NCBI GenBank assembly: GCA_965237955.1
Contig: OZ250169.1
Span: 2,944,001-3,008,000 of the forward strand
Direction of reading: 5' to 3'
Length of the DNA: 64,000 bases
Source: Candidatus Marinacidobacterales bacterium
GTDB taxonomy: Bacteria > Acidobacteriota > Vicinamibacteria > Marinacidobacterales > SMYC01
The position numbers and the translations under genes were made by a program. Within the stretch, counting starts at the first letter, position 1; each line of letters begins with the position of its first letter. The notes beneath the pieces were generated by a model. That model searched no databases. It saw nothing but the letters and a program-made list of their open reading frames with translations, and had not been told where the DNA came from. Positions 4,172 through 64,000 of the stretch are shown piece after piece.

Positions 4172-5599
4172 CGTCCTGTGCCAAAACTCGGCCCTTTTGA
4201 AATAGGCCATAAATCAGCAACTTAGTGTCTGTGTTTGCGGCCGGGCCAAGGGCCGTGGGCTTTACAATCGTCTTGGGCGGGTGGGTCGTCACCATGCAGG
4301 TGACCACCTAGTCGAGAGCGAATATCGAAGCGTGTTCCTGAAGCTGTTTCCACGCTACGCCGGTCGAGCCCGCCGAGGGGCCACCGTCGCCGGCGACCAT
4401 CTACGCGGCACGGTAGTAGTAGTTGAGAATGCCCCTAAGTCGCTCTCGCGACACGATGGGGCCAGCGTCATTCGCGCTTGCCGGCAGAGGTGTGAGGAGC
4501 TCGTTGCCGAGACCTTGGTGGTTCCGTTCTGTGTGATAGTGCACTACGTATTCGGTTACCGCTGTGCGCAGGTGTCGCTCACTGAGAGGTACGAAGCGGT
4601 CGAGACACTCTCGACGTATGGAGAGAACGAATCTTTCCGCATATGCGTTCAGGTTCGGACTATTAGCGGGAAGGCGAAGGGGCTTCACGCCTGAATCTCT
4701 CAACAGCCCACGTACCGCCTCGGTGAATAGCGGGTCCCGGTCGTGGATGAGGTATCGCTTGCCAAGGAGGAAACCATCCCACATGTCAGTGAGGTTTCTT
4801 GCCACCTGCTTCATCCACTCCCCGTTGGGGTCCGACGTTATCCCACCGATGCACACGCAGCGAGTGGCGATATCGATGACAAACAGGACATGGTAGCGGA
4901 CGAGCCCGAACGGGTTCACCACCTCGACGGTGAACAGGTCTGTCGCAGCGATGGCGCCCCAATGAGCCTTGATGAAGGTGCTCCACGACATGCTCTTGCC
5001 CCGCTCCGGCGCAGGCGCGATACCGTGCTCGGCGAGGATCCTCTTGATAGTGTTGCGTCCGAGTTCATGTCCTAGGTTCTTGAGTGCGCCTCGCAGGCGC
5101 GTATATCCCCACGTCGGGTTCTCCCGCGCCACGCGCACAATGAGCTCACGGATGTCCTTCGCCGTCGGAGGTCGGCCTGGACTCCGGTTCTTGCTGCCAT
5201 CGTACTTGGCTGCGATGAGGTGGCGGTACCAGCGCAGAAGCGTAGCGGGTGTGGCAACGGACGCAATCTGGGCCAGCGCCTCGCGGCCCAAAGCCTGGGC
5301 CTTGACCGCGAGCCTGCGCCGGTCGTCGTCCGAGAGCCTGAGACGCTTGCCCCGAAGCCCGGCTCGGAGCACACGGTTCTCCTCTTGCAGGTAGTCGATC
5401 ACATCCTGCTGCTGGCGGTTGACCCAGCCAGCTAGAACGAGCAGTAGGAATTGCACGTGGTACGTCATCATGGATCTGAAGATAACACCCTCGGGCCAGA
5501 CGATTGTAAAGCCTACGGCCCTTGGCCCCGGCGCAAACACAGACACTAAGCTGCTGATTTATGGCCTATTTCAAAAGGGCCGAGTTTTGGCACAGGACG
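4172..5599 (-). mobile_element. Complete IS481-like rve/DDE element with ~100-bp type A terminal inverted repeats
   Basis: CGTCCTGTGCC...CTTTACAATCGTCT inverted at 4172 and 5599, enclosing one transposase ORF; no target duplication. Confidence 0.85.
4401..5471 (-). CDS. Transposase, HTH + integrase core (rve) domain
   Basis: [30 protein letters not shown] (D-D-E), [12 protein letters not shown]. Confidence 0.9.
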
Positions 5600-5889
5600 G
5601 GACAGCATCGACCCGACTGAGATATCGGCTTGGAACTCGTGGCGGACGCCGCCAAGTCGATGATGGTCTTTCTCTCTGGCGAGCCGAAGGGAAACGATTT
5701 GCTTGAAACCGGCTCCACTCCTCCGGCTTCGACTAGCCCTTGTCAGCACCGAATGACTTGAGATACAACGTGGTACTAACCGTGGGGTCAGGTCATTTGT
5801 GTGCCATGGCGGCATTCTTGCACACGTGAGCGTGGTTTGCCTATAGTGCTGTCGTGTGCTCCATACCGCGCTAGGAGGAAAACATCTAA

Positions 5890-6606
5890 ATGAGCAAAGA
5901 TAACTGGAGTGATCTTGCGTCGGCGCTCAACTCCAAGCTAAAACTGCAAGCCACACCTATTGCCATCACCTTTTCCAACGACTTCCAAGGAGTTCCGTCA
6001 TTCGAGGGGCCGACCCCGGCGCCGATGCCCGATGGGCGGACTGGCAAGGTCCCTGCGGGCTGCGTTTTCTGGATGAAGGCAACGGACCGTACGTTCAGCA
6101 CCGTCGCCGAAGATCACGGCAATTGCAGTGTCGGAAGCTTGACGCACGGCCTCAAGACAATGGACGAAGTAGCCGGCAATAGCGACGTGGCTGCGCTCCT
6201 AGATAGCGGATGGGTCACGATGGATGTCGTCCCGCAAATCCCGGTGGTCAAGACCAAGTACCGCTACATTACCTACGGACCGCTCGTGGAGAGCTCGGAT
6301 CCGGACGTGGTCGTCGTTCGCCTCAACGCAACACAACTTATGGTCCTTCATGACGCAATCCCCGGTCTTCGCTTCGAGGGAAAACCCCAGTGTCACATCG
6401 TCGCCATCGCCAAGGAGCAAGGTGAAATCGCGGCCAGTGTCGGGTGCATGCTAAGCCGGATCCGTACAGGGATGTCACCCAGCGAAGTGACGTGCGCGAT
6501 CCCGGCCTCCAAGCTGGGCGACGTCATCGAGGCGCTCGATTCCACTTGCGTGGCGGACGGCAAGGTGGCGACGTACGCTGCAGAAGATGGAAAGCGATTC
6601 GCCTAG
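5890..6606 (+). CDS. DUF169 family protein
   Basis: Cys pattern AGCVFW, HGNCSVG, PQC, SVGC..SR; RBS AGGAGG. Confidence 0.75.
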   Translation: MSKDNWSDLASALNSKLKLQATPIAITFSNDFQGVPSFEGPTPAPMPDGRTGKVPAGCVFWMKATDRTFSTVAEDHGNCSVGSLTHGLKTMDEVAGNSDVAALLDSGWVTMDVVPQIPVVKTKYRYITYGPLVESSDPDVVVVRLNATQLMVLHDAIPGLRFEGKPQCHIVAIAKEQGEIAASVGCMLSRIRTGMSPSEVTCAIPASKLGDVIEALDSTCVADGKVATYAAEDGKRFA

Positions 6607-6812
6607 GACCCTAAGTCGGTCAAACCCCGTGAGGTCAAAATACTCATGCGCGTCGTGTCCAAAAATACAAACGAACTCAAGACCGGCTTGCCGGGACGTT
6701 TCGGAATAGACGTGTCTACGCTTGGTTCGCAGCACTTGAATGACCGGGTTGATTTCTCCGGGATTGCAGGCTAGCGTAATCTCTAAACAGACAGCGAGGA
6801 GAGGAGAGACAA

Positions 6813-7334
6813 ATGCAGCCACTTTACGATCCCGAGGGTGTTCGGCCCATGTGGGAGGAGCTTGCCCAATGCGGGGTCGAGCCCGTGCAAACAAGAGAGA
6901 ACGTTGACGAGGCCTTGAAGAGGCCTGGGACAACGCTCGTGGTGGTGAACTCGGTTTGTGGATGTGCTGCCGGCTCGGCGCGCCCGGGTGTGACTCGCGC
7001 CCTGCAACACAGCACAATTCCCGATCACCTCACGACGGTCTTCGCCGGCGTGGACCGTGAGGCCACGGAGCGCGTCAGAGAGCACATGGTCGGCGTTGCT
7101 CCGAGCTCACCTTCGGTGGCTCTTTTCAAAGACGGCGAGCTCGTGCACATGCTTGAGCGACGGCATATAGAGATGATGAACAACGAGATGGTGGCGCAGA
7201 ACCTGACCGAGGCTTTCGACAAGTACTGCTCTCGACAGGGACCGTCCGTCCCCAGAGAAGAGTACGAGAAGGTGGAGCACGCGCGGCAGTGTGGCTCCTC
7301 GGTGCCGCTGTTCGATCCCCTCTCAAACCACTAG
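6813..7334 (+). CDS. BrxA/BrxB family bacilliredoxin
   Basis: VVVNSVCGCAAGSARP, TVFAGVD, PSSPSVALFKDG. Confidence 0.9.
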   Translation: MQPLYDPEGVRPMWEELAQCGVEPVQTRENVDEALKRPGTTLVVVNSVCGCAAGSARPGVTRALQHSTIPDHLTTVFAGVDREATERVREHMVGVAPSSPSVALFKDGELVHMLERRHIEMMNNEMVAQNLTEAFDKYCSRQGPSVPREEYEKVEHARQCGSSVPLFDPLSNH

Positions 7335-7942
7335 CAGGCGCTCTTCTCCCAGGCAAAGTCCAGTCCCGTCTCGGCCTCGGGGGCCGTTCCTCGCCTGTGG
7401 CGTGCTCCACCACCCATCAGGCCAGCCGTGCGCACCCCGTCCTGTGCCAAAACTCGGCCCCTTTGAAATAGACCATAAATCAGCAACTTAGTGTCTGTGT
7501 TTGCGACCGGGCCAAGGGCCGTGGGCTTTACAATCGTCTTGGGCGGGCGGGTCGTCACCATGCAGATGACCACTTAGTCGAGAGACTACCTCCGACCGAT
7601 GGAAAGCCATAAATCCTTCAGAATAAGACCCTTCCACGCCCCATGTGGAAATCGCTGTGGAGAACTCGGGCTCGGGATGCCAGATCCGCGCAAGTCCCGG
7701 CCCTCATTGAACTTTATCGAAGCGTCTCGGATTAGATTTTGTGGAAAATACGGTCCTCAAGCGATGGCTTCTCAGGCGAAACTACCCGTTGGTCGAATAA
7801 AGTGTGGCTGGCCCGAGCGGGCCGTTTCAGAGCCCATGATTACGACGGCGAGAAGGCGCAAGCCTGCCTGGGTGTACCTTCTATTTATTCATCCGGGCGC
7901 CCCAAACTTGATTAGTCTCCGGTCTGCCGGCACCATGCCTGC

Positions 7943-8095
7943 TTGATTTCGTCGTTTGTTCGCGCTCTCATCTCCGCCTTCAAGGCTCGTCGCGAGCTGG
8001 CTCTCGACAATGTCGCTCTTCGGCAGCAGCTCGCCGGCCTCCGCCGTTCGGTGAAACGGCCGCGGCTCTCGAACGTCGACCGCGGGTTTTGGGTA
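7943..8095 (+). pseudogene. N-terminal fragment of E-type rve transposase (similar fragments near 10262-10322, 28390-28510, 47818-47977)
   Basis: LxNVALRQQLA..RRSVKRPRLSNVDR.FWV; truncated. Confidence 0.7.
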
Positions 8096-8205
8096 ACTGT
8101 AGAGCCTAAGGGCCCTTGGCCCAGTCGCTAAGCTGCTGATTTATGGTCTATTTCCAAAAGGGCTGAGTTTTGGCACAGGACGGGCGCGCCGGGCCGTTTT
8201 GATCG

Positions 8206-8334
8206 CGTCGTGTCCAAAAATACAAACGAACTCAAGACCGGCGCGCCGGGCCGTCGCCGAGTTTCATCTATCATTATGATGGAGAGCGCAACCATCAAGG
8301 GCTTGGCAACGTGTTTGTGTTTTTGGACACGACG
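8206..8334 (+). mobile_element. 129-bp B-B miniature element; inverted copy at 60031-60159
   Basis: B ends at both termini enclose an rve C-terminal remnant ([13 protein letters not shown]). Confidence 0.75.
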
Positions 8335-8624: not shown

Positions 8625-8771
8625 GTCTCCGGAAGCATATCAAGGGAGTCTTGTTTCCTCGTGGCGTTGTTCGAGAGGCTTCGCGGACAATCCGCCGGCC
8701 GTCGAGCCTCTGTGAGCAGCTGGAGAGGAGGTTCGGTCGCAGGTCGAGCGTGCCGAATCTCATGCCGGCTC

Positions 8772-9858
8772 GGCGTTGTTGCACGGCCCGGAGCAAATCG
8801 CTGACCTCCCTGTGCCGGTTGCAGAGTCACCCGGCGCAGTACGTATCGGGCATCCCGAGCGCAGCCATCTTGTTGAGTATCTCGCACCCAATTCGGTGTT
8901 CAACTCGTTGCCTCGCCAACGTTCGAGCCCGCATCTCCGGCCCGATGATCGCCTTGTAACGATAGACCGCGTTCTCCACCATGCTTCGCTTGGTGTAGCC
9001 TGAGAGCTTGTACCATTCACGTCGGCCGTGTCTTTCGATTGCACGAATATGGCGATCGCGCTCCTGCAATGGCGGTGTTCGAATTCTGACTGAGCGTCGC
9101 GTTTCGTTGCGGCGGAATCACCACGCGCGTCCTTCGTCCAGGACTGTGCGCTTCGATGGCTTCGTAGACCGCTTCCTTGTCGTATGCACTGTCCGCCGCC
9201 ACCGACACTAGAGGTGCTTGAATCTGTGTTAGCAAAGCGGGGACTCGGGTTGCGTCGCGAGCTCGTGACGCCGTCAGTTCGGACGCAACAATGTTGCCGG
9301 TCTCGCGATCAACGGCGATGTGCAACTTGCGCCATGCGCGCTGCTTTGGCGGTTTGCGAGCGTTTCCAACATGAATCCTCAAGCCCGTGCTATCGATCAT
9401 CAGGTGGATGGGTTGAGTGCTCGCGGCTTTCGGAATCCGCAGCTTCTTGCGGAGCAACCTCGAGCGCCGACACAACGTCGAGTAGTCCGGGATCTCGATA
9501 CCGAGCCCGAGAAGCGAGGCGATCGAGTGCAAGAAGCCTTCGGTTTGTCGGTAGGCGAGCTTGTACACCATCCGGACAACCAGGCCCGTTTCAATCGCCA
9601 TGTCTGAAATAGACCCGTTGACCGCCAGGCTTACCGGTCTTGTCGGCCTTCCAGTTCGCGATTGCCTCCTCGTCAAACCAGACTGTCAAATCGCCCCGGC
9701 GGCACAGCCCTTCGTTGTATTCCGCCCAGTTGCGAACGTGGTACTTCTTCTGCTTCGCGTGCTTGTACTGGCAGCGCTTGGGATACTTCATGCTCGAACA
9801 TACCTCGGCCACCACCATAGGCGGATTTCGCTCTCAGCCAGAGCGGTGCAACAACGCC
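8772..9858 (-). mobile_element. IS5 family (IS903-like) element with frameshifted transposase
   Basis: 13-bp TIR GGCGTTGTTGCAC; YHVRNWAEYN, IDSTG, WRKLH, DSAYD and RSMVE are split over three frames. Confidence 0.85.
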
Positions 9859-10169
9859 GTACTCACCCGAGGGCCCGCATTGAGGCCTGTGCGATTGTGG
9901 ATGGCGTGTTTTCAGGATCGCACGATGAGTTGTGGAACGCGTTTGGTGACAAGATTGCCGTTTCGCGCTGCGAGTTTGACCACTATTTCGCCGGGACTAC
10001 GGATGCACACGCCATCGTTCTCCGGGAAGTTGCTCCTCTGAATCGTTCCATCAAGCTCAAAGAGTTGCGGAGAAGACTCACTGGGTTCCACCCACCGCAG
10101 TTCTTCAAGTGGCTTGACCCTAGTTGTAAGGAACTTTGCGTCCTGTCGGAGCGGACGGCAGAGAGCTGA
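9859..10169 (+). pseudogene. 3' fragment of an ASCH-domain protein
   Basis: ELW...VSRCEFDHYFAG..AHAI...L.ELR...FHPPQ pattern; 5' end lost at the IS5 end. Confidence 0.6.
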
Positions 10170-10754
10170 AACGTCGGACCCATTTCGTTTCGCGCGGTAG
10201 GGTCGAGGGCTGGCGCGGTGCTCCGTGGGCACGGTGTGCCTTCTATTTAATTCATCCGCGGGCACCAGCTCGCGACGAGCCTTGAAGGCAGAGATGAGAG
10301 CGCGAACAAATGACGAAATCATGTAGGCATGGTGCCGGTAGACCGAAGACTAATCAAGTTCGGGGCGCGCGGATGAATAAATAGAAGGCACAGGCGAAAG
10401 GCAGCCTGAGTCAGCTTGGTCGCTCGCGTTACTCGGCTGGTCGCCGAGAAGTTCGTCCTCAGCACCTTCCCTCGCGCGCTGACCACGCTCTCCAGCATGT
10501 GCTCAAGGGCGGTCTGGGCCCTAGAGTCCAGTCCCGGACCAATAATGATGATGGACAACTTGGGTCGTGAGGAGAGAAGTATGGCAAAAATCGAAGACAA
10601 ACACATGTACCACGGGGCGGCGCTAAGCCAGATAGCCCTGCGTCTAAGCTGCTGATTTGTGGTCTATTTCAAAAGTGCCGAGTTTTGGCACAGGACAGGA
10701 ACACGGCATCGAGCCCGCGCCGGAGCGAGGTGAGCGAACGCCATACGGTGATCA

Positions 10755-10886: not shown

Positions 10887-11712
10887 CGTGTTGATGAGCT
10901 GCTTGAAGGATCCCTGCCAGAGCAACTCTGGAACCGTCTCGACACTCAGGCTCGCGATGTACTCGTGGTTTTCGCGACGCATATCGTTATTGATGCTGAT
11001 ATAGGACGCCAGAACATCAGTTGAGTCATCGACAAGAAAGTCGGGCGAGTTTTGCAGGATGGCCGGCACGACACGAGAGAGAAAGCGATCATTCAAATTG
11101 ATTCGGCTTTCCCGAAATTGCTTTGGAAAAACATGTTGATCGAAAGTTGCACTGCCTTCGTTACCAAGAGGGTCACGTGCGAAAACGCTGATCGGTGTGT
11201 TGAGATCCTGATCCCACGAAAGGGCGTAGAACGCAACATGCAACATAGGATCAGCGCTTTCGACACCGGCACCGGCAGCCGGGAAACCTGGATACTCACG
11301 CTCGCCGACACGCTCGCCGGAAACTGAATCGGCTGGTGTTACGCGATACACGACGAGCTCGGAACCGCCGTGATTGATGTAGTGAAACTGAGATTGAACG
11401 ACGATAACCGGCCGGCGCAAACGAACTTCGATCCCTAGTTCGGATTGCGTTATGGCTTCGCGAAGGCCGAACACTACGGGTCGACCCGCTGTGACCGCGA
11501 CACTCGCTGACCCATCACTGAGTGACTCAAACCGTTGCCTGCCAATCGGCTGCCTGAGCACCAAGCGATCCTCGCCTTCGCGTACAAGCCCTGACGCACC
11601 GCCGCGGGTCGCAAGATTGAATACTTGCAGCGTCTCGCCGCCCTGTTCGAGCGTCACCTCGAGCAAACTGAGCTCACCGCCCGGCGTATCGATCGTCATG
11701 ACGAGCTCACCC
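10887..11712 (-). pseudogene. Internal fragment of an M23-family peptidase-associated gene, cut at both ends by A ends
   Basis: HYINHGGSELVVY, ARDPLGNE, FPKQFR, LLWQG.F resemble the N-terminal region of such M23 proteins; catalytic domain absent. Confidence 0.55.
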
Positions 11713-12030
11713 CGTCCTGTGCCAAAACTCGGCCCTCTTGAAATAGCCGATAAATCAGCAGCTTAGCGTCTGTGTTTTGCGACGGTGCCAAGGGCTGTGG
11801 GCTTTACAATCGTCTGGCTCGAGGGTGTTATCTTCGGATCCATCATGACGTACCATGTGCAAATCCTACTGTTGGTCAGGCAGCCGTTGTTCGATCGGGC
11901 AGCCCTTGCTGCTCACACAGACCTCATGGGTGCTTCCGCCATTAAGTGTTGGTAAAATGACGCTAAGACTTTACGGTGCATTAAATTACAGCCATGGTCT
12001 TTCAAAAGGGCCGAGTTTTGGCACAGGACG
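11713..12030 (+). mobile_element. 318-bp A-A MITE containing a D end; near-identical copy at 37485-37802
   Basis: Direct comparison of the two copies; flanks differ. Confidence 0.9.
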
Positions 12031-12135
12031 CGGTTCATCGGCACGTGTATGTAGTTCAAAAATCCGTTACGCACGAAGAGTCTGGGGCTGGAAGAAGGAC
12101 TGCGCTGCCCGATCTTGTTGCCACCGGAGGCTCTG

Positions 12136-13551
12136 ATGGAAGAAGCCATTCTCTTTGACTCGGTGGCCGAGTTAGGCCGAATGTTACGCAGCCGGGAGAT
12201 CTCTCCGCTCGAGTTGACGGCTGCCTACATCGATCACGCCAAAACACTCGACCCACAACTTCTCGCGGTCGTCACGCTGACCAAGGAATTGGCCGTCCAG
12301 CAAGCACGCGCCGCGGAAGCGGAGATTATGAGTGGCCGCTACCGCGGACCGCTGCACGGAATCCCGTGGGGTGTAAAGGATCTGTTTGCCACCAACGGGA
12401 TACCGACGCAATGGGGATCGCCCGCGTTTGGCGGGCAGACGTTTGACTACGACGCCACGGTGGTGCGGAAGCTATATGACGCCGGGGCTGTGCTCATCGC
12501 GAAGCTTGCGACCGGTGAGCTGGCCTATGGCGCCAAATGGTTCCGCGGTACCACCCGGTGTCCCTGGGATACGAGTCGCTCCAGCAGTGGTTCCTCGGCG
12601 GGACCCGGTGCGGCCACGGCGGCCGGGCTGGTTGGGTTCTCGATCGGGACCGAGACCGAGGGGTCGATCATTTCGCCTGCGAGCGTCAATGGGGTCGTCG
12701 GACTGCGCCCGACCTACGGGCGCGTGAGCCGATACGGCGTAATGGTGGCCGGCTGGACGATGGACAAGCCCGGTCCCATGTGTCGCTACGTCGACGATTG
12801 CGCCACCGTGCTCCGGCACGTCATGGGAGCGGATACTCTCGACCCGACGGCGGTGGATGCTCCGTTCGAAATCCCGCCGCAAGCGGGGATCCGCGGGAAA
12901 AAGATCGGAGTCCTGCGCGACGAGTTCGACATGCCCGAGGACCCTGAGTTGAGACAGATACTCAATGCCCCTCTGGAGGTCCTGGAAAGCCTCGGGCTCG
13001 TCCTCGAAGAAACGGAGCTCAGGGATCTTCCGTACAGCGAGGTCTCACGGTTGGTCGGCATCGAAGAGGCCAGCTACTTCGAGCCCTTGATCGAGTCGCC
13101 GAGAGTCAACGAATTGCTCAGGAAGGATCACATCAACAGGTGGGCCGCTGCCCGCATGGTTCCTGCAATCGACTATGTAAAGGCGCAGAGGATTCGGGTC
13201 GAGATGATGCAGTATGCAAGCGAGTTGTTCGACCGTTATTCAGCGCTCGTGACGCCGGCCTGGATGGGGACGGCCTGGGACGCCGATGCATCGGAAACGT
13301 CCGGGGTCATCTACCGTACCCGGCGCACCGACCCCGAGGACCCCGACAGCGCTCTGCATCCGAGGATCAGTCTGTTCTCGAACCTGGTCGGCGTTCCTGC
13401 GGTTTCCGTCCCCTGCGGATTTACGAAGGGGGGGCTACCGATGGCCATCCAGTTTGTCGGTGCTGCGTTCGACGAAAGCGGGATTCTTCAACTGGCGCGT
13501 GCCTATGAACAGGCCACTACGTGGCACGAACAACATCCAGCTTTGGGTTGA
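12136..13551 (+). CDS. Amidase signature family protein (GatA-like)
   Basis: GPLHGIPWGVKD, SSGSSAG, IGTETEGSI; GGAGG before ATG 12136. Confidence 0.9.
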   Translation: MEEAILFDSVAELGRMLRSREISPLELTAAYIDHAKTLDPQLLAVVTLTKELAVQQARAAEAEIMSGRYRGPLHGIPWGVKDLFATNGIPTQWGSPAFGGQTFDYDATVVRKLYDAGAVLIAKLATGELAYGAKWFRGTTRCPWDTSRSSSGSSAGPGAATAAGLVGFSIGTETEGSIISPASVNGVVGLRPTYGRVSRYGVMVAGWTMDKPGPMCRYVDDCATVLRHVMGADTLDPTAVDAPFEIPPQAGIRGKKIGVLRDEFDMPEDPELRQILNAPLEVLESLGLVLEETELRDLPYSEVSRLVGIEEASYFEPLIESPRVNELLRKDHINRWAAARMVPAIDYVKAQRIRVEMMQYASELFDRYSALVTPAWMGTAWDADASETSGVIYRTRRTDPEDPDSALHPRISLFSNLVGVPAVSVPCGFTKGGLPMAIQFVGAAFDESGILQLARAYEQATTWHEQHPALG

Positions 13552-13569
13552 TCCTTCGGAGGACTTCAC

Positions 13570-13842
13570 ATGGAATTGATCAGTCGCAGAGAGTTATTTA
13601 TCGGCGCTGCCGGGACGACGCTGTTGTACACGGCGTGCGCCGAGGTTGAAGAAAAGGGAGAGGTTTCCGACGAGACCGTCAAGGCCTTCCTGGCATTCAC
13701 CGATCAAGTCGTGGAAGGTGAAGAGCGGATCGCCGAGATCAAGAAAGCTCTCGAACGCTTTCTCGAGTCCATCCGGACGATCAGGGCGCACCGTGTACCA
13801 CAGGCGGTGGAGCCCGCGACAATTTTTAGGGCCGAGCGCTAA
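13570..13842 (+). CDS. Small Tat-signal protein, possible GatC-like amidase partner
   Basis: SRRELF twin-arginine motif; C-terminal EPATIF; directly follows the amidase. Confidence 0.5.
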   Translation: MELISRRELFIGAAGTTLLYTACAEVEEKGEVSDETVKAFLAFTDQVVEGEERIAEIKKALERFLESIRTIRAHRVPQAVEPATIFRAER

Positions 13843-14197
13843 TGGCGCGCTGAATCGGCGCGCTCGCTCATTGGCGCGTCACGCGCCATAACGTGGCAGC
13901 GCCGTTTGCCCCGGCGATCCCGAACGCAGGCCCCCGTCCTGTGCCAAAACTCGGCCCTTTTGAAATAGACCACAAATCAGCAGTTTAGACGCCCTTGGAA
14001 TCCGCGCAGAATCGAGGGTATTTCGCGCCGCAGGGCTGACTTCCGACCCCTGGGCTGCGGGTGGCGAGCGACAGCCCACCGGTGGTGCGCACGGCTGGCT
14101 CAAATCGGCTGCGGGGCGAGCTACGGGCAGTGAACTGCGCACCCGGAAGTCCCTCATTAGACTGGACTTTATCGAGCACAAGAGCGAACGTTCGGTG

Positions 14198-14629
14198 ATG
14201 CCGCAGGATACAGGGGTTGGCCGGAACGTCGTTTTGGACGGTTTGGACTTCGCCAGCTTACGGCGGGTCTGGGAGCAGACCTTTGGGGCTGCTCCTCCAA
14301 GCTCGCTCTCGCGTGTTTTCCTGCGCCGCGTTCTCTTGCACGAACGCCAGTGCCGGACCCATGGCGGGCTTTCGGCCGCAACCCGGCGCGCTCTGGCTGC
14401 CATGGCGAACGAGACACCAAGCTCCGGCGCTCCCGCAGGGTCCGTTTCTGCCGGCACCCATCTCGTCCGCGAGTGGAATGGCCGGACCTACCAGGTCGAG
14501 GTACTCGACAACGGCTATCGGTTCGATGGCAAAACCTATCCGTCCCTCACTACCATCGCAAAGCGAATCACCGGCACCCACTGGTCAGGACCACGCTTTT
14601 TCGGTCTGACGCCCAAGCGCAAGGCCTAA
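14198..14629 (+). CDS. DUF2924 domain protein
   Basis: GTHLVREWNG..V.V...G..FDGKTYPSL..IA..ITGTHWSGPRFFGL. Confidence 0.9.
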   Translation: MPQDTGVGRNVVLDGLDFASLRRVWEQTFGAAPPSSLSRVFLRRVLLHERQCRTHGGLSAATRRALAAMANETPSSGAPAGSVSAGTHLVREWNGRTYQVEVLDNGYRFDGKTYPSLTTIAKRITGTHWSGPRFFGLTPKRKA

Positions 14630-14630
14630 C

Positions 14631-18804: not shown

Positions 18805-18836
18805 CTTCTCGTGCGGCTCGAAACGACACCGGTCGA

Positions 18837-21299: not shown

Positions 21300-21440
21300 G
21301 GAAAGAGTAACCCTTGGCACGACTGCTTGGTTGGACTGGTATATAATTTCCGTTTTTGATGGAACAAACTTCATGGGGGAGAAGGAAACACAAGCAGCAC
21401 CAAGCTCGTTTCACCGCACCGGCAAAGCGACCGAGTCCAC

Positions 21441-23969: not shown

Positions 23970-23978
23970 AAACCTACC

Positions 23979-51969: not shown

Positions 51970-52292
51970 GTGACCTCCAGCCAGAACCCGTCCTGTGCCA
52001 AAACCTCGGCCCTTTTGAAATAGACCATTAATCAGCAGCTTAGTGTCTGTACTACCTGCGAGAGGAGATTCGGTTGCGTCGTGTCCGAAAATGCGAACGG
52101 AGCCAGAAAGCTCGAATCCTAGAGGCGTTCTCGAAATTTGCAGAGACCAGCCGACGGGGCACTGGCTCTGCGATAGGCGCTCCCGAGCAGACCTCTCATT
52201 CTAGCTCCTATTGCCAACCGAGCCTAGACACGTCTCATCCGAAACGTCCCGGCGCGCCGATCTTGAGTTCGTTTGTGTTTTTGGACACGACG

Positions 52293-53250: not shown

Positions 53251-53359
53251 TTTTCCTTCATGGCGGTGTCTCCTTCCGTAGGTCCCTTCAGGCCGTGTTC
53301 GACGACGCGGAAGGTTACTCCACCTTTACTCTATTTCCACATCTTCTGAGGGTAGCTCT

Positions 53360-54730
53360 ATGGACATCGTCCTTGCCTTTAGCGCGTTGTGCGTCTTGCT
53401 GGTGGTCGGCAAGATCCTGCGAGTTACGATCCGCCTGTTCCAGAAGCTTTACCTGCCGGCATCGGTGATCGGTGGTCTGCTTGGGCTGGCGCTCGTGCAG
53501 ACGATCGGTGGCTTCCTACCCGAAGCGACGACGGCGGGCTGGACTCGGCTGCCAGGATTCCTCATCAACATCGTCTTTGCGGCCCTCTTCCTGGGAGTCT
53601 TCATTCCACCGATCAGACGCATCTGGGGGATCGCCGGACCGCAGTTGGCGTACGGTCAAATCGTGGCCTGGGGCCAATACGTCGTCGGCCTTGGGGTGGC
53701 GGTCGTGCTTCTAACACCGGTTTTTGACATCCCGGGGGCCATCGGCACCATCATTCCGGTCGGCTTCGAGGGTGGGCACGGCACGGCCGCTGGTCTGGAG
53801 CCGGTCTTCGATGCCTATGCCTGGCCCGAGGGCAGGGACCTAGCCCTCACGTCGGCGACCTGCGGCGTCCTGTTTGCCATCATCGTCGGGATGGCTCTCG
53901 TCAACTGGGCGGCGCGCCGGGGCTACACCCAGCAACTGAAGCGCATTGAGGACATGCCCGAGAGCAGTATCGTAGGCGTCTACGACCCAGCCGAACGGCC
54001 GAGCGCCGGGAGCCAGACCGTGTCGGCGGCGTCAATCGACAGCCTCAGCTTCCATCTCGCCATCATCGGTCTCGGTGTCTTCATTGGCTATCTGATCCAC
54101 AGCGGCTTGGTGCGCGTTGAGCTCCTGGTGCGGTCTCCAAGCGCCGACGGTCGCGCCTTTTTCGACAGTTTCCCGCTCTTTCCGCTGTGCATGATCGGTG
54201 GTCTGGTGGTGCAGGTCTTTTTCGCCAACTTCACCAAGCGCAATCCGCTCGACCATCGTCTCATGCAGCGCCTCTCGGGCACCGCCATGGATTTCCTGGT
54301 GGTGGCTGCGATCTCGACCATCAATGTGGAGGTGGTGCTGGGGGGGCTCGTGCCCTTGGCGATCCTGGTTGCCGCCGGGGTGCTGTGGAACGTCTTCTGC
54401 GTGGTGTGGCTGGCGCGTCGCCTCTTGCCAGCGGATTCGTGGTTCGAGCGCTCGATCGCCGAAATGGGGCAATCGATGGGCGTCACCGCCACCGGCCTCT
54501 TGCTGTTGCGCGTCGTAGATCCCGAGGGCGACACGGACGCCACCTCGGCCTTCGGTTACAAGCAGCTCATGCACGAGCCGTTCATGGGCGGCGGGCTGTG
54601 GACCAGCGCCGCCATTCCGCTGGCGCTCGCCTACAATCCGGTGTTGGTTCTAGGCATCAGCGCCGGGGCGGTAGCGCTCTGGTTGCTGGTGTGGGCGCTG
54701 TTGTTTCGCGGTCGGCTCGGCCTCGAGTGA
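53360..54730 (+). CDS. Sodium/glutamate symporter (GltS family)
   Basis: LPASVIGG, GFEGGHGTAAG, GQSMGVTATG; multiple TM helices. Confidence 0.85.
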   Translation: MDIVLAFSALCVLLVVGKILRVTIRLFQKLYLPASVIGGLLGLALVQTIGGFLPEATTAGWTRLPGFLINIVFAALFLGVFIPPIRRIWGIAGPQLAYGQIVAWGQYVVGLGVAVVLLTPVFDIPGAIGTIIPVGFEGGHGTAAGLEPVFDAYAWPEGRDLALTSATCGVLFAIIVGMALVNWAARRGYTQQLKRIEDMPESSIVGVYDPAERPSAGSQTVSAASIDSLSFHLAIIGLGVFIGYLIHSGLVRVELLVRSPSADGRAFFDSFPLFPLCMIGGLVVQVFFANFTKRNPLDHRLMQRLSGTAMDFLVVAAISTINVEVVLGGLVPLAILVAAGVLWNVFCVVWLARRLLPADSWFERSIAEMGQSMGVTATGLLLLRVVDPEGDTDATSAFGYKQLMHEPFMGGGLWTSAAIPLALAYNPVLVLGISAGAVALWLLVWALLFRGRLGLE

Positions 54731-54914
54731 ATCGGCACCGGCGGGCGTGGGGTAGGTGCCTAGTGGAGCAATCCACAAGGAGCGCCGCCCCCCGTCTTGT
54801 GCCAAAACCTCGGCCCTTTTGAAATAGACCATAAATCAGCAGCTTAGTGTCTATGTTTGCGACCGGGCCAAGGCGACGCAAGGGTCTTGAGTTCGTTTGT
54901 ATTTTTGGACACGA

Positions 54915-55816: not shown

Positions 55817-56072
55817 CGGGATTGCAAAACTGCATTGCAGTACTGATTCGATTGGCGATACCTTTATGCAAGGCGGGAACTGCTGACACTTAACTTGGGA
55901 CTGAAGAATTCATTGTGGCTATTGTTCGACAACGTCGACAAAGGCTAGCCGACCAACGGAATTCAGGGGGAGGATTTGGTCATCATCCGAGCGCTCCTTA
56001 AAGCGACGAGAAAGCTGGAGCGTCGGCTTCGCCGAGGTGACTTCGATTGTCGGACGCTGGTGTTCCTAAGAC

Positions 56073-56211
56073 ATGGTGCGAGGAGATCAATCGGGCACAG
56101 TCGGACGTGTCCTATGATTTCGTCTTTGTGGACGAAGAGAGCTTCAACAGATACAGCCCAAAATCATTTGCCGACCTTGCTACCAATTTCCGTCAGTACA
56201 AGGAGGGCTGA
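56073..56211 (+). pseudogene. Type III restriction (Res) C-terminal fragment
   Basis: WCEEINRAQSDVSYDFVFVDEESFNRYSPKSF..L...FRQYKE*; recognised from memory only. Confidence 0.5.
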
Positions 56212-56214
56212 ATC

Positions 56215-57717
56215 ATGACCGCGCCGGTCACCGCCTCAATGCTTTACGATTTGGTTTCTTGTCCGCATCGCGTGACCATGGACCTTTTCGCCGACCAGGC
56301 GCAACGCGATGAGTCAAACCCGTTTGTTCAATTGCTTTGGGAGAAGGGTAACATCTATGAGAAAGAGGTTATTGAGAGGCTGGAAATGCCCCTTACCGAT
56401 CTCTCAATATACGCAGGTGATGAAAAGGAACGGCTGACTTTTGAGGCTATGCATGGCGGCGAACCGCTAATCTACAGTGGACGTATGCAGGCCGAAGGCC
56501 TTCTTGGAGACCCGGACCTGCTGCGCCAAGAGGGTGACGGGTATGTCGCTGGAGATATCAAGTCAGGCGCAGGGGAGGAAGGCTCGGGTGACCTGTCGAA
56601 ACCCAAGAAGCACTACGCGGTGCAACTCGGGCTCTACACAGACATCCTGGAACGTAAGGGCCTTTCTGCCGGGAAACGTGGCTTTATCTGGGATATTGAT
56701 GGCCAAGAAATCATCTATGACTTTATAAAACCATACGGGAAACGGAATCCACGCACGCTCTGGGAGGATTATCAGGATTGCCTCGCCGAGGCCCAGGCGA
56801 TAGTCGGCAAGAGCACGGAGACGCTTGCCGCCTATAGCGGGGTTTGCAAGCTCTGTCATTGGTACAGCGCTTGTATCTCACGCCTAACCGATGCGAACGA
56901 TCTGACGCTGATTCCTGAGTTGGGCAGGTCGAAGCGTGACGTGATGATGGAACGTATCGCAACGATCCGGGACCTGGCCGAGGCTTACCCCGCAGAATTT
57001 GTCACGGGCAAGAAAACGATCTTCCCCGGCATAGGTCTCGCGACTCTAGAGAAGCTGCACGCCCGAGCGAAGCTGATTACGGCGGGGAAGAAGGCCAAGC
57101 CCTATCTCCGCGAACCGGTAACGCTGCCGGTCGCCGATCTGGAACTGTACTTCGACATCGAAGTCGATCCCATGCGCAACATCTGTTACCTGCACGGTTT
57201 TGTCGAACGGCGGGGCGGCGACAACGACACAGAACGGTTTATCACTTTCTTCGCCGAGCAAACAACCGCAGAGGCTGAGAAGCAGGCTTTTGCCGAGGCT
57301 TGGCGCTACATGCAGGAAAGCCAGCCCTGCGTGATCTACTACTACTCGAAGTACGAGCGAACCATCTATCGAAAGCTACGTGAGAAATATCCGGACGTCT
57401 GCAAGGAGGACGAACTGGAGGCGCTATTCGACCCGGTACGGGCCGTGGACCTCTATTCTAATGTGGTGCTGAAGGCCACAGAATGGCCAACACGAGACTT
57501 CTCAATCAAAACACTGGCGAACTATCTCGTCTTTGCGTGGCGCGACACACATCCCTCGGGGGCGGCTTCAATCGAATGGTTCCATAGGTGGGTAGAAACG
57601 GGTGACCCTACGATTCGCCAGCGCATTCTTGATTATAACGAAGACGATTGCCGTGCGACGCGCGTTCTGCGGGATGCTCTTGACAGCTTGATCGTGATGC
57701 CGGAGGGGCCCGGATGA
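56215..57717 (+). CDS. TM0106 family RecB-like nuclease with RNase H-like C-terminal domain
   Basis: GDPDLL, GDIKS, QLGLY, CKLCHW, YFDIE, YNEDDC. Confidence 0.88.
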   Translation: MTAPVTASMLYDLVSCPHRVTMDLFADQAQRDESNPFVQLLWEKGNIYEKEVIERLEMPLTDLSIYAGDEKERLTFEAMHGGEPLIYSGRMQAEGLLGDPDLLRQEGDGYVAGDIKSGAGEEGSGDLSKPKKHYAVQLGLYTDILERKGLSAGKRGFIWDIDGQEIIYDFIKPYGKRNPRTLWEDYQDCLAEAQAIVGKSTETLAAYSGVCKLCHWYSACISRLTDANDLTLIPELGRSKRDVMMERIATIRDLAEAYPAEFVTGKKTIFPGIGLATLEKLHARAKLITAGKKAKPYLREPVTLPVADLELYFDIEVDPMRNICYLHGFVERRGGDNDTERFITFFAEQTTAEAEKQAFAEAWRYMQESQPCVIYYYSKYERTIYRKLREKYPDVCKEDELEALFDPVRAVDLYSNVVLKATEWPTRDFSIKTLANYLVFAWRDTHPSGAASIEWFHRWVETGDPTIRQRILDYNEDDCRATRVLRDALDSLIVMPEGPG

Positions 57718-57950
57718 ACAATACACAGCAAACGCATGACGCTCAACAAATACTCTCCAGCCTGAGGGACCATCTTGCGCGGCATGACAAGCCTATCGCT
57801 TTCTTCTTAGGTGCTGGCACATCTTGTGCGATCAGAGTGGCGGTGCCCGATGACAAGGATAAGACGCAGCCGCTCATACCTGCCGTTGCCGAATTGACCA
57901 AGATATGCCGGGAAAAGGCGCGTGGCTTAGGCAAAAAGTATGAAGAGACA
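57714..57950 (+). pseudogene. SIR2-like protein N-terminal fragment
   Basis: IAFFLGAGTS and LIP...LT; cut by an IS3 end. Confidence 0.7.
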
Positions 57951-58764: not shown

Positions 58765-59408
58765 GCTTTTCCCGGAAGACGACGCAATACGCATCGAACT
58801 AGTCGGTGCCTGTGAGGTCAAAATACTCATGCGGCTTCCCGATGGTAGAAACGTAACAACCCGCCAAGCCGTTCACGGGAGCGCACCATAGAAACTAAGC
58901 TGCTGATTTATGGTCTATTTCAAAAGGGCCGAGTTTTGGCACAGGACGGGATGCCACGCTCCCGAGCGGAAACCTGGGTCCAGGCCCGGGCCGCACCTGG
59001 ACCAGAACGTGCTAGCCCGCTGCGCCGCGGTAGCCCCGGCCTCGATTCTAGGTCCTCTAGAGACGAGAGCGCGAACAAACGACGAAATCATGCCGGCATG
59101 GCCCCGGCAGACCGGAGACTAATCAAGTTCGGTGCGCGCGGATGAATAAATAGAAGGCACAAGCCAAGCGATGGCAAGTCCTAACCACGCAATCAACGCT
59201 GGATCGACTTTTTGCGGAGCACAGGTTACCCAGCTTCTTCAGAGTATCCTGCGCGGTGTTTCTCGCTTTGATTCGCTCTCCTTCCGCGCCGTCGCGTACG
59301 TCGCGTGTTGGGTTCCCGCGACAAGAGTCACCCGCACGGATCCCGTCACGACCACTCTTCGCGAGTGAAACGGAGTGCGCCGTCTCCGGATTCCAGTCGA
59401 GAACGCGG

Positions 59409-60182: not shown

Positions 60183-60411
60183 AGGTCGAGATACTCGACA
60201 ACGGCTATCGGTTCGATGGCAAAACCTATCCGTCCCTCACCGCCATCACAAAGCGAATCACCGGCACCCACTGGTCAGGACCACGCTTTTTCGGTCTGAC
60301 GCCCAAGCGCAAGGCCTAACATGAAGAAAATCCGTTGCGCCATCTATACGCGAAAGAGCGCGGAAGAGGGGTCTCGAACAGGAGTTCAACTCCCTCGATG
60401 CGCAGCGAGAG
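60183..60411 (+). pseudogene. DUF2924 3' half plus recombinase 5' fragment
   Basis: Similarity to ~14494-14720; begins right after an A end. Confidence 0.8.
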
Positions 60412-60432
60412 GACGGACGGGCGTCGCGCTTA

Positions 60433-61686
60433 TTATGACCAGGTTCTGATCGCCCGCTCCACGTCGCGCCCCGACGGACTCTGGAACACTCGCAGGTCGA
60501 ACTCCGGCACCACCGCCAGCAGATGGTCGAAGATGTCTGCCTGGATCGCCTCGTAGCGGCTCCAAACCTGATCGCGGCTGAAGACGTAGACCTCGATCGG
60601 GAGCCCGTGCTCGGTTGGCGCCAGCTGCCGGACTAGGAACGTCATGTCCTGGTGCACCATCGGGTGGTGGCGGAGGTACGCCACGACATAGGCGCGAAAC
60701 GTCCCGACGTTCGTCAAATGGCGGCCGTCGGCCAAGCTCACCGGTTCGACCCCGCGCGCCGCGTTCCAGTTTGCAATCTCCTCTCGCTTGGCCTTCATAT
60801 AGTCGGCGATGTACTGAATTTTCGAGAAGCGCGCCAGCATCTCCTCGTCACAGAAGCGAATGGAGCCGACGTCGATGTAGAGGGCTCGCTTGATGCGCCG
60901 GCCACCCGATTCCGCCATGCCGCGCCAGTTCTTGAACGATTCCCCAATCAGCGCGTAGGTGGGAATCGTGGTGATCGTCTTGTCCCAGTTCTGAACCTTC
61001 ACCGTCGTCAATCCCACATCGAGCACGTCGCCGTCGGCGCCGTGCTTCGGCATCTCGACCCAATCGCCCCGCGAGACCATTCGGTTCGCCGACAGCTGGA
61101 TGCCGGCGACGAAGCCAAGAATGGTGTCCTTGAAGACCAGCATCGTCACCGCGCTCATCGCGCCGAGGCCGCTCAACAGCAGTAGCGGCGAGCGGCCGAG
61201 GACGAGCGCCAGGACGCTGATAGCCGTTACGGCGTACACCACCAGCTTGAGCACCTGGGCGATGCTCCGCACCGGTAGCTCCCGCGGGAGCCGCGAACCC
61301 CGGACGATTTCGATCCCCACGTCCACAACGCTGTCGGCCGCCAGCGCCGCGATGACGATCATGTAGATGAGCGCCCCCTGCCGCACGACGGCTGTCAGCT
61401 GGTCGTATCCGGCGAGCACCGGAGTCGCGAAGTGGTAGATCACCAGCGCCGGCACAAGATGTGCCACCCGTTGTAACACGCGGTGCCGCATCACGACGTC
61501 GTCCCAACTCGAGGTCGTCCGTTGCGCGAGCCGCGCGATACCGCGAACCACGACACTCTTGGTGACGCGGTCGGCGATCAGGGCGACGAACAGGACGAGC
61601 AGGACGCCTCCAAGCCGCGTCAGCAGCGTGGCGCCCGCCTCGCTCATCCCCCACTTAAGCAGCCAGTCGTGCAGCGGGCTAAGCAC
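60433..61686 (-). CDS. Mechanosensitive channel, MscS family (YbdG/MscM-like)
   Basis: FKDTILGFVAGIQ, GDWVEMP..GADGDV, VKVQNWDKTI, GGRRIKR, TNVGTFR. Confidence 0.92.
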   Translation of the reverse strand: MLSPLHDWLLKWGMSEAGATLLTRLGGVLLVLFVALIADRVTKSVVVRGIARLAQRTTSSWDDVVMRHRVLQRVAHLVPALVIYHFATPVLAGYDQLTAVVRQGALIYMIVIAALAADSVVDVGIEIVRGSRLPRELPVRSIAQVLKLVVYAVTAISVLALVLGRSPLLLLSGLGAMSAVTMLVFKDTILGFVAGIQLSANRMVSRGDWVEMPKHGADGDVLDVGLTTVKVQNWDKTITTIPTYALIGESFKNWRGMAESGGRRIKRALYIDVGSIRFCDEEMLARFSKIQYIADYMKAKREEIANWNAARGVEPVSLADGRHLTNVGTFRAYVVAYLRHHPMVHQDMTFLVRQLAPTEHGLPIEVYVFSRDQVWSRYEAIQADIFDHLLAVVPEFDLRVFQSPSGRDVERAIRTWS

Positions 61687-61975
61687 GCAACGTCTCCATC
61701 ATGCAATTTTACGCCACTATATCTCTTGGTTGGACCGCTCACTAGATGTCGTGGTCTTGTCGTACTCGGCTAGGAAGGTGTCTGGTCCAACCGCAACATT
61801 CCGACCATCAACGACACGGCTTCCTCTTCATGACCGCTCCTCTTCGCGGCCATTATCTCAGCTCCGATTCAACTCGGCTTTGTCCTAGTTTTCGGAGAGC
61901 ACGTCACCGAGTCTTCCTCTTATGCCCGCAACAGTCAATGACGCAAGCACCCATCGGACGTCCACGACGAGGGCT

Positions 61976-62722
61976 TCAAACGGACGTAAGATCCGACAAC
62001 GATATTTCCTGGAGGTCGCTATCAGGAGCGTAAGCCTTCTCCGCCGCCCGGCGAATAACCGCTTTGATGGCCTCCTCCAGAAATCGGCGGTCCTGATATG
62101 TCAGATCATTGTCCTTGCCGATTGCCTTTCTCGCTTGCTGACCGCCTCTTTCCGAAGAGAGATTGCCGATCTTGTTGAGCACCTTCAGCTTTATTCGATA
62201 CATTTTAGCTGCCTTCTTCTTGCCGCCAAGTATGGTCAGGCAGAAATAGGCCATGCTCGCCAAAGGCTCTCTGCCCTCGAGATAACCCTCGTAGCGGTCA
62301 TACATGGTCTGCACGTCGGGGATGAGCTTGAGTCCCGGTGATGGTGGCGAAGGATAAGGTTTTGAAACAGTGGCCATCACGCTTACCGTCGGTACCCCAG
62401 TCGTGATGCTCACGGATGTATCCAACACACCCGGTATCGGCTTCTTGTCCTCAATTTGCGCCTTTTTAAACCTTAACTTGAAATGGTTCGGCCCTTCCCG
62501 AAGGCCAGAGTCGAACTCCCACACGCGAATATAGTCTTCAATGGCTTTCCGTGCAGCGTCTTTAGTCGCGTAGTGTTTCTTGAATTCAAAGCGCACTTGC
62601 TCATTCGCGATCTCGACACGAAAACCTGTCTCTTCGTGAGCGATTGGCTTCGCCTTACTATAGTCAACCGACCGACCATGCTCGATTTGGTAGAGTAATG
62701 CGACTACATGAGGGTCGTTCAT
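61976..62722 (-). CDS. Hypothetical protein, lower GC
   Basis: 248-aa open frame with plausible composition; no motif recognised. Confidence 0.65.
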   Translation of the reverse strand: MNDPHVVALLYQIEHGRSVDYSKAKPIAHEETGFRVEIANEQVRFEFKKHYATKDAARKAIEDYIRVWEFDSGLREGPNHFKLRFKKAQIEDKKPIPGVLDTSVSITTGVPTVSVMATVSKPYPSPPSPGLKLIPDVQTMYDRYEGYLEGREPLASMAYFCLTILGGKKKAAKMYRIKLKVLNKIGNLSSERGGQQARKAIGKDNDLTYQDRRFLEEAIKAVIRRAAEKAYAPDSDLQEISLSDLTSV

Positions 62723-63084
62723 TGAACCGCCCCGGGGATGCTACTGGCTGATCTTCTCTTTTTTGCGGGTCGCAGGTATTTCGAACGGTATTACGGCATC
62801 ACGCTTGCCGAGGCGACCCCGTCCTGTGCCAAAACTCGGCCCTTTTGAAATAGACCACAAATCAGCAGCTTAGACGCCCTTGGAATCCGCGCAGAATCGA
62901 GGGTATTTCGCGCCGCAGGGCTGGCTTCCGACCCCTGAGCTGCGGGTGGCGAGCGACAGGCCCACCGGGGGTGCGCACGGCTGGCTCAAATCGGCTGCGG
63001 GGCGAGCTACGGGGCAGTGAACTTCGCACCCGGAAGTCCCTCATTAGACTGGACTTTATCGAGCACAAGAGCGAACGTTCGGTG

Positions 63085-63516
63085 ATGCCGCAGGATACAG
63101 GGGTTGGGCGGAACGTCGTTCTGGACGGTTTGGACTTCGCCAGCTTGCGGCGGGTCTGGGAGCAGACCTTTGGGGCTGCTCCTCCAAGCTCGCTCTCTCG
63201 CGTTTTCATGCGCCGCGTTCTTGCGTACGAACGCCAGTGCCGGACCCTTGGCTGGCATTCGGCCACAACCCGGCGCGCTCTGGCTGCCATGGCGAACGAG
63301 ACACCAAGCTCCGGCGCTCTCGCAGGGTCCGTTTCTGCCGGCACCCATCTCGTCCGCGAGTGGAATGGCCGGACCTACCAGGTCGAGGTAATCGACAACG
63401 GCTATCGGTTCGATGGCAAAACCTATCCGTCCCTCACTACCATCGCAAAGCGAATCACCGGCACCCACTGGTCAGGACCACGCTTTTTCGGTCTCACGCC
63501 CAAGCGCAAGGCCTAA
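63085..63516 (+). CDS. DUF2924 domain protein
   Basis: Near-identical to 14198-14629. Confidence 0.88.
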   Translation: MPQDTGVGRNVVLDGLDFASLRRVWEQTFGAAPPSSLSRVFMRRVLAYERQCRTLGWHSATTRRALAAMANETPSSGALAGSVSAGTHLVREWNGRTYQVEVIDNGYRFDGKTYPSLTTIAKRITGTHWSGPRFFGLTPKRKA

Positions 63517-63517
63517 C

Positions 63518-64000
63518 ATGAAGAAGATCCGCTGTGCCATCTATACGCGAAAGAGTGCGGAAGAGGGTCTCGAACAGGAGTTCAACTCCCTCGATGCGCA
63601 GCGAGAAGCCTGCGCCGCGTATGTCGCGAGCCAGAAAGCGGAGGGCTGGGTGCTGCTGCCAACCGTCTACGAGGACGCGGGGCTCTCGGGAGGAACCCTG
63701 GAGCGCCCGGGCCTGCAGCGCTTGCTCGCCGACATCGACGCAGGTCTCGTCGACCAGATTGTGGTCTACAAGGTCGACCGGCTGACCCGTTCCCTCTCCG
63801 ACTTTGCAAAGCTCGTCGAGCGGCTCGAGGCGGCCGGCGCGGTTTTCGTCTCGGTGACTCAGTCCTTCAACACCGCGACCAGCATGGGACGACTGACGCT
63901 GCATATGCTGCTGTCCTTCGCACAATTCGAACGCGAGGTCACGGCCGAGCGGATCCGCGATAAGGTCGCTGCCTCCAAGCGCAAGGGACTATGGATGGGC
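63518..64000 (+). CDS. Large serine recombinase, 5' part (runs off the window)
   Basis: Near-identical to 14631 onward. Confidence 0.88.
   Translation, partial: MKKIRCAIYTRKSAEEGLEQEFNSLDAQREACAAYVASQKAEGWVLLPTVYEDAGLSGGTLERPGLQRLLADIDAGLVDQIVVYKVDRLTRSLSDFAKLVERLEAAGAVFVSVTQSFNTATSMGRLTLHMLLSFAQFEREVTAERIRDKVAASKRKGLWMG

Follow-up and report, generated by a model that had tools for sequence, protein, structure and literature searches.

Gene blocks joined at solo ends of an unclassified DDE insertion sequence family in an acidobacterial genome

In integrons and clusters of attC sites lacking integron integrases (CALINs), repeated recombination sites alternate with short, mutually unrelated genes, and recombination at attC is a single strand exchange finished by replication. 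In ISEcp1-type capture and in mobile insertion cassettes (MICs), neighbouring genes are mobilised with the help of insertion sequence (IS) ends; these units insert with both boundaries at one target, which they duplicate, and the cargo lies inside the ends. Here we analysed a 64,000-nucleotide stretch, the window, corresponding to C1:2944001-3008000 of an 8.13-Mb genome in a single contig (G000), in which unrelated gene blocks alternate with the ends of an IS family encoding a DDE transposase. The arrays formed by these ends are unlike integrons and CALINs: the sites are transposon tips without a common orientation, genes are cut, no tyrosine recombinase was found among the 56 window open reading frames (ORFs) scanned, and attC hairpins were not noticed, although no model search aimed at them was made. 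They are also unlike ISEcp1 and MIC units in that the cargo is mostly outside the ends and no target is duplicated. Judged from sequence, the mosaic is real and built by IS elements, and the mechanism proposed below is read from the same source.

The closest analogue of the arrays is the IS26 cluster. According to the available portions of the IS26/IS6 literature (PMC7885326, PMC7986276), ends in these clusters join unrelated blocks, flanking repeats are lost and new units arise beside existing copies, as seen here; the single in-register strand transfer proposed for the targeted route (PMC7885326) also resembles the chemistry that we propose. The same sources set IS26 apart, with an unrelated transposase, an additional two-ended copy-in route generating an 8-bp duplication, and a requirement for entire IS copies that lie in direct orientation and have identical ends. 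By contrast, the family described here shows one-ended signatures at non-end targets, mixed end types, mostly solo ends, random orientation and arrays of up to 350 kb. IS6-family elements have 14-bp ends and duplicate 8 bp; the A protein had no IS6 model match and no duplication accompanies the family described here. The observed swaps of flanks and ends would fit a targeted reaction.

The sequence-only reading, an earlier interpretation made from the letters of the window, referred to IS481-like elements, which have TGT...ACA-type ends. As far as the consulted text on IS481 goes (NF033577; PMC10045372), the likeness lies in a single ORF encoding a helix-turn-helix (HTH) and a DDE domain with 35-residue D-E spacing, and in the TGT tips of end types C, D, G and H. 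The family differs from IS481 in that types A, B and E start with CGT, the 2-15-bp duplication of IS481 is missing, and scores of 102.1 (A), 78.5 (C) and 83.8 (G/H) bits fall below the cut-off of 224. IS3 has a related DDE domain, and its copy-out pathway begins with an asymmetric single-strand transfer, as outlined in the part of PMC7780238 available. Scores against NF033516 (IS3) were 83.3 and 80.4 bits, below the cut-off of 160, and the family lacks the two-ORF frameshift, the abutted end-spacer-end junctions and the 3-4-bp duplication of IS3, whose members in this genome keep their duplications. IS1202, in the accessible part of its description (10.1101/2022.12.17.520857), shares an IS481-related DDE domain, TGT tips and a target preference, but makes 5-6, 15-17 or 27-28-bp duplications and targets Xer sites in one subgroup, none of which was seen here. 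By its sequence, the family is an unclassified, IS481/IS3-like group of DDE insertion sequences. The searchable literature (without ISfinder, most subscription journals and supplements) held no description of the family or of such arrays.

An end family clustered in arrays

The following elements and end clusters of the family lie in the window; a strand is assigned to the transposase only.

4172..5599: complete type A element, 1428 bp, with ~100-bp inverted ends starting CGT and no target duplication
4401..5471, minus strand: intact 356-aa DDE transposase (D178, D244, E279) with N-terminal helices and an HTH, below the IS481/IS3 cut-offs
19871..21299: second complete type A element, its transposase frameshifted near 20620
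11713..12030: 318-bp non-autonomous A-A element with an IS1-like end inside at 11929
37485..37802: second 318-bp A-A element, with flanks differing from those of the 11713..12030 copy
10235..10392: 158-bp non-autonomous C-C element
50042..50249: 208-bp B-B element
52077..52292: 216-bp B-B element
58811..58948: short E-A' hybrid element, with similar ones at 10755-10886 and 16687-16824
7438..8334: typical end cluster, with A+, C+, A-, B+ and B- ends mutually nested

Our letters for the end types (A-E, G and H) need not equal the A-F of the sequence-only reading. Short A-A, B-B and C-C elements recurred at fixed lengths. With strict or relaxed motifs, our two modes of end calling, the window contained 62 or 67 ends of types A-E and G, and together with seven GGT-starting, IS1-like ends this agrees with the total of ~70 first reported. 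The grouping of all ends into six related types stood for those starting CGT or TGT and not for the GGT end, which belongs to another, IS1-like family with an 8-bp palindromic target.

The triad of the 4401-5471 transposase was conserved in 48 aligned relatives, and its predicted structure was confident (predicted local distance difference test, pLDDT, 93.6). A fold search with this model returned generic DDE enzymes only (template modelling, TM, score ~0.3-0.4), and a sequence search of solved structures gave a single marginal match. It is the one intact rve transposase of the window, as had been noted, but not of the genome, where 57 of 232 family matches were ORFs with a model coverage of 80% or more, among them 26 in the A cluster and 16 G/H. 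Ends outnumbered long transposase ORFs by ~17:1. One family member has two unlike ends (G and H) over 1346 bp (G000:C1:217055-218400 and 15 others), and 16/16 complete copies had long ORFs.

The array had been taken to begin at 4172, whereas the window proved to be a section of a 292-kb array (C1:2913401-3205686). Genome-wide, 943 of 988 ends, of seven types, were inside 16 arrays whose borders were drawn from A, B, C and E ends and which together occupy 1.67 Mb, or 20.6% of the chromosome. A test independent of these borders gave 99 of 163 50-kb bins without any end, against 0.36 expected (maximum of 4 in 1000 simulations), and two end-free stretches each exceeded 840 kb; the ends are clustered, not uniform, in agreement with the array first suggested. 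The control elements IS5b and ISAzo13-like were evenly spread (21/80 and 6/32 copies in arrays), indicating that the core tolerates insertions. Orientation was balanced (231 plus and 217 minus for type A), and ends were nested in each other, a sign of attack of ends on ends. Outward-facing end pairs enclosed 283 slots with a median of 1.6 kb and 78% low-copy DNA, versus 25% between inward-facing ends. The first array begins ~530 bp after a tRNA-Ser gene (G000:C1:126836-127455) and another lies 6 kb away from tRNA-Gln/Ser genes, a placement also seen in genomic islands.

Transposases 94-99% identical to those of the window came from records titled Candidatus Marinacidobacterales, and sponge metagenomes were among the public sequencing runs holding the stretch; the host is therefore likely a sponge-associated acidobacterium. 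End A was found in nine other genomes of the 55 searched in the order (29-449 copies each) and not in the remaining 45, many of which are fragmented. The type A element was 97-99% identical between genera. The family also occurred in 9 of 150 other sampled genomes of the phylum, in Myxococcota, Rokubacteria and others, and in Streptomyces, Leptospira and Bradyrhizobium plasmids; in two other acidobacteria, its copies lay within a few kb of one another. On one Bradyrhizobium plasmid (L126:18929-20831), a family member without duplication adjoins a cytochrome c peroxidase ORF apparently cut at the end.

Target sites and the mode of joining

Of 48 full-length A copies, 45 had no target duplication and three had flanks alike over no more than 2-3 bp; long duplications, searched up to 45-50 bp around the A copies, were not found. 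Duplications were also lacking in 11 of the 15 distant relatives with both ends located (19 examined), with matches of 2-3 bp in the other four. We then compared the flanks of complete elements that could both be traced to an empty copy (46 in all). These were contiguous in the empty copy for 1/24 A, 0/9 B, 0/6 C and 0/7 G/H elements, and the single A case had a 27-37-bp gap inside another repeat, so that a clean target was restored in 0/46. Control flanks were contiguous in 5/7 (IS3a), 5/12 (IS3b) and 9/10 (x62) cases. A same-type partner end at offsets -12 to +3 was found for none of 168 A, 40 B, 36 C and 17 E ends. Among the joints listed from public contigs on 5600-13900 and a second array stretch (15/117; 15/22; short contigs), there was no clean empty allele, and two contigs across 6627 extended only 30 bases beyond it, too little to count for or against clean insertion. 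Two candidate duplications were rejected: a CG duplicated beside ends starting at T was ruled out by empty sites without it, and for C and D the flank by itself hinted at a 3-bp duplication that was unsupported once the empty side was added. At two A ends separated by 1.5 kb (G000:C1:2930564 and 2932060), the outer flanks are near-inverted copies over 13 bases.

A two-ended attack leaves a palindromic target logo even with one half deleted, and target symmetry is therefore the discriminating test. Symmetry was scored as the best value over staggers of -8 to +12, with the score of the symmetrised logo as reference. Type A scored 0.26 (270 sites; bootstrap 0.21-0.35) against 0.95 when symmetrised, type B 0.26 (82 sites) against 0.83 and type C 0.29 (75 sites) against 0.79, and this asymmetry held with low-copy targets alone. 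The controls scored 0.91 (IS5b) and 0.67 (IS5a) at 9 bp and 0.80 at 3 bp (IS3b). The type A target logo, ACCC|MGT, has no two-fold axis and resembles A's own junction. Target preference was strong on both sides of the junction, with C at 0.88 and never A or T at -2, and G/T at +2/+3. The type A logo was flat between -7 and -40 on the flank side and between +5 and +22 on the empty one, making longer staggers unlikely.

Ends also appeared to be reused. Different end types occupied the same nucleotide of one flank in 14 cases (15 listed, one a double call), and 73 of 757 ends in relatives' loci (1.2 Mb) shared a junction with this genome. Seventy-eight junctions, four of them from the window, were shared between separately assembled genomes; 48 had low-copy flanks and 35 of these 48 had different inner sequence. 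With the cassettes found in new neighbourhoods (see below), this bears out the suggestion of the sequence-only reading that the ends are reusable joints.

We hypothesize that the mosaic is joined at the ends of this family by a transposase that does not insert both ends together but joins them singly, each in register, to short degenerate sites, a reading to which we give an even chance. The transposase would nick one end and transfer one strand to the degenerate site, creating a nicked Holliday junction that replication or host resolvases would finish; such a transfer is the model proposed for the targeted conservative reaction of IS26 in the part of PMC7885326 available, and the asymmetric opening step of copy-out transposition (PMC7780238) is a further precedent. 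Attack on a nearby flank would delete DNA up to the end, attack on the junction of another end would swap flanks or replace the end, and attack at a point outside the element would free cargo in the form of a circle. Existing ends would be the places where such circles, and DNA from elsewhere, re-enter by transposase or homologous recombination, and as a consequence ends would breed where ends are. Since none of these events inserts the element cleanly, survival of new copies among essential genes would be rare. The outcome would be a selfish yet productive accessory compartment, with end-bounded cassettes common to related bacteria. A bolder form, possible but doubtful, is that an unnamed, widespread DDE family gave up concerted insertion altogether, its transposase acting as a single-end strand-exchange recombinase on the junctions it has made and on degenerate sites that resemble them; at a slot, either of the ends facing it would attack incoming DNA and swap the slot content, making the arrays a community-wide cassette exchange compartment.

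If one-ended joining is correct, a common family with no annotation beyond 'integrase core domain-containing protein' would owe its mobility to a route that no DDE element is described as using exclusively, and would have built a fifth of a chromosome. This would account for the near-identical accessory genes common to symbionts of different genera and for the breaks of short-read assemblies in such regions, and would amount to a one-protein, scar-free end-joining activity with a short target. The arrays are possibly a variation on IS-built gene clusters, with chemistry that may be new.

Several observations weigh against one-ended joining. The IS903-like elements showed contiguous flanks in 0/26 (IS5a) and 1/20 (IS5b) cases though they attack both strands, so that missing duplications alone are not decisive. 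Type D was half-symmetric (0.51 at a blunt axis versus 0.75 symmetrised), and the sets for E (13 sites) and G/H (19 sites) were underpowered. Flanks matched by 3 bp in 4 of 16 complete G/H copies, with ~1.8 expected by hand count; the one of these four with both flanks traceable was not contiguous. Resemblance between target and tip was confined to type A; the targets of B, C, D and G/H preferred C at +2. End-less reciprocal junctions among 273 targets gave no clear peak near offset 0, the near-zero cases being boundaries of other elements. No circles were seen, and head-to-head junctions of less than 12 bp numbered 1/283. Finally, unrelated elements were enriched in arrays (IS5a 43/51, IS3b 29/48, GGT ends 169/218) and three CRISPR repeat types (~132, ~61 and ~39 copies) lay wholly within them, indicating that the arrays are permissive ground too and that part of the end clustering is explained by regional tolerance. 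One CRISPR repeat is adjoined directly by an A end.

The most serious alternative, which we hold to be unlikely, is two-ended replicative copy-in, as by IS26, IS1 and IS903, followed by very frequent adjacent deletion and recombination between copies in dispensable islands, the asymmetry arising from biased survival of one junction. Two-ended elements of this very genome (IS5a, IS5b) lose contiguous flanks, type D is partly symmetric and some G/H copies have 3-bp matches. In the available text of PMC7986276, flanks are deleted or inverted, and gene clusters assembled, when replicative transposition is intramolecular, and in that of PMC11708052 duplications are removed by adjacent deletions. 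Part of the mosaic is indeed ordinary IS erosion, because the IS903-like elements have also lost contiguous flanks. However, the deletion-dominated IS5b keeps its palindromic logo and some 9-bp partners (14 of 216 flanks, 1.2 expected) whereas A, B and C keep neither, IS5b is found chromosome-wide and the DDE end family is not, and distant low-copy relatives also lack duplications. Copy-in with heavy deletion explains the mosaic but not the asymmetry of the logos; symmetry therefore argues against a two-ended mechanism for types A-C.

Cargo, passengers and remaining explanations

Window cargo was unrelated from block to block (amidase, type I restriction-modification (R-M), sulfatase, M28 and M4 peptidases, redoxins, MscS), and its genes were intact or cut at an end, for example HsdM-S at 26413 and a recombinase copy at 34097, as the sequence-only reading described. 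The blocks are as follows.

5600..6627, plus strand: DUF169 gene, with an E-end junction recurring elsewhere in the genome and in locus L068
6720..7437, plus strand: disulphide isomerase (PF06491)
10887..11712, minus strand: part of an M23-like peptidase with an end on either side; in run X15, a contig continues past 11712 with other sequence
12031..13934, plus strand: amidase cassette
21300..26413, plus strand: type I-like R-M genes (HsdR; HsdM-S cut at an end), with a 98% copy in G023, another family
30220..31680, plus strand: ADP-ribosylglycohydrolase
35140..37250, plus strand: AhpC/TSA and metallo-beta-lactamase-fold genes
37803..39466, plus strand: M28 peptidase, with a 91% copy elsewhere in this genome, within 8 kb that hold no end
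50462..51988, minus strand: sulfatase cassette
53150..54792, plus strand: sodium/glutamate symporter
55822..57950, plus strand: TM0106-family nuclease
60410..62720, minus strand: MscS channel and an unknown ORF

Three window cargoes were searched for throughout the order, and each had a copy of 98-100% identity outside its own genus or family; a fourth, searched in five genomes, had a best copy of 94%. The amidase cassette had a ~100% copy in G013, where the right junction is present and the left end absent, and a 98% copy with neither end in G009, a genome without an A end. The sulfatase cassette had a 99% copy in G013, with identical boundaries, and another of 97% in the genome of the window itself, within 9 kb devoid of ends. 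In the restriction system (21441-26447), the methylase and specificity domains are fused, and the specificity region differs in G023 and G032. Genome-wide, 33 of 157 low-copy slots were matched over their full length at another place; both ends came with 15 of them, one end with 16 and neither with 3 (classes overlap). In 10 of 12 comparisons the shared sequence extended less than 370 bp beyond the slot in either direction, placing the cassettes in new neighbourhoods; the two exceptions were one long duplication and the amidase. Block order was not ancestral, and cassettes recurred at distant loci and in other genera. The copies fit capture and trimming by ends, where direct capture and integration followed by trimming would look alike, and one-ended joining likely helps gene cassettes to spread between related bacteria. 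Evidence for capture from the genome's own core was weak, with 14 of 137 array-to-rest duplicated blocks bounded by an end (counted with an incomplete end catalogue) and many of them low-copy IS.

Such traffic could also come from a host-domesticated, integron-like platform, in which selection maintains solo ends as attachment sites and useful genes are captured and reordered at them by a few transposases, or the serine recombinase, acting in trans. The excess of ends over long transposase ORFs, the many intact cargo genes, the cassettes common to genera at 97-100% and the recurrence of the architecture in nine other genomes speak for such a platform. We consider it improbable, as ends have no fixed orientation, no platform gene or array head is present, many genes are cut, ends are nested in ends, near-identical elements occur across genera as for a spreading selfish IS, and most genomes searched in the order lack end A. 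The comparison with an integron without IntI made by the sequence-only reading was likewise not upheld, the recombinases being the family's own abundant transposases and much of the cargo being cut.

Patching of elements into pre-existing double-strand breaks during large rearrangements, at targets not chosen by a transposase, appears quite improbable. Insertions of IS481 and IS5 without duplication have been observed at rearrangement joints, but other IS481 copies keep 4-bp duplications, both in the consulted part of PMC11708052; the strong target preference on both sides of the junction implies sites chosen by an enzyme.

A large serine recombinase is encoded next to a DUF2924 gene within the end clusters.

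13935..16686, plus strand: A end with DUF2924 and large serine recombinase (14631-16292) as passengers
starts at 26533, 32427, 39467 and 62820: cut copies of this module

That this recombinase shuffles the cassettes at a site inside end A seems very improbable, although 21/21 full modules are in arrays and 85 of 88 left junctions share a single position in end A. On the right, end A does not continue: the modules run to a B end, on which the longest copies close, or are cut by other ends. A single fixed junction fits one old capture, later copied by the DDE family, and cargo boundaries lie at end tips, not at the junction site of the module. The serine recombinase is a passenger inside the ends, and the earlier statement that cargo lies outside the ends is correct in the main, this module being an exception. 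Between the recombinase gene and the B end are ~900 bp without a clear ORF.

Repeat-driven misassembly is hardly credible: no contig of the public runs spans a whole array stretch, but the genome is a single contig, the same junctions recur in separately assembled genomes and they obey a sequence logo.

Bystander families

Other mobile elements of the window served as controls or are bystanders.

34613..34778, no strand assigned: 166-bp IS1-like bystander with GGT-starting ends and an 8-bp palindromic target
28520..30176, minus strand: bystander IS110-family transposase (29028-30104) closed by an IS1-like end
8771..9859, minus strand: IS5-family (IS903-like) element, control IS5a
40203..41290, minus strand: IS5-family (IS903-like) element, control IS5b
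17620..19222, minus strand: ordinary IS3-family element, above the NCBIfam cut-off, a control keeping 4-bp duplications

The GGT end bounds a broken IS1-like element, on which IS1 models match below cut-off, and its target logo was symmetric (0.76 at 8 bp). The IS110 transposase sits in units of 1666-1674 bp closed on both sides by IS1-like ends, with varying flanks (also G000:C1:876953-878621 and others). Outside arrays, too, the IS903-like elements lacked nearly all of their 9-bp duplications, which suggests that adjacent deletions are very frequent. A 120-bp miniature element (~111 copies) with 4-bp duplications was evenly spread genome-wide. Repeated fragments at 16850-16971, 55687-55821 and 10193-10226 presumably resemble 3' domains of a group II intron.

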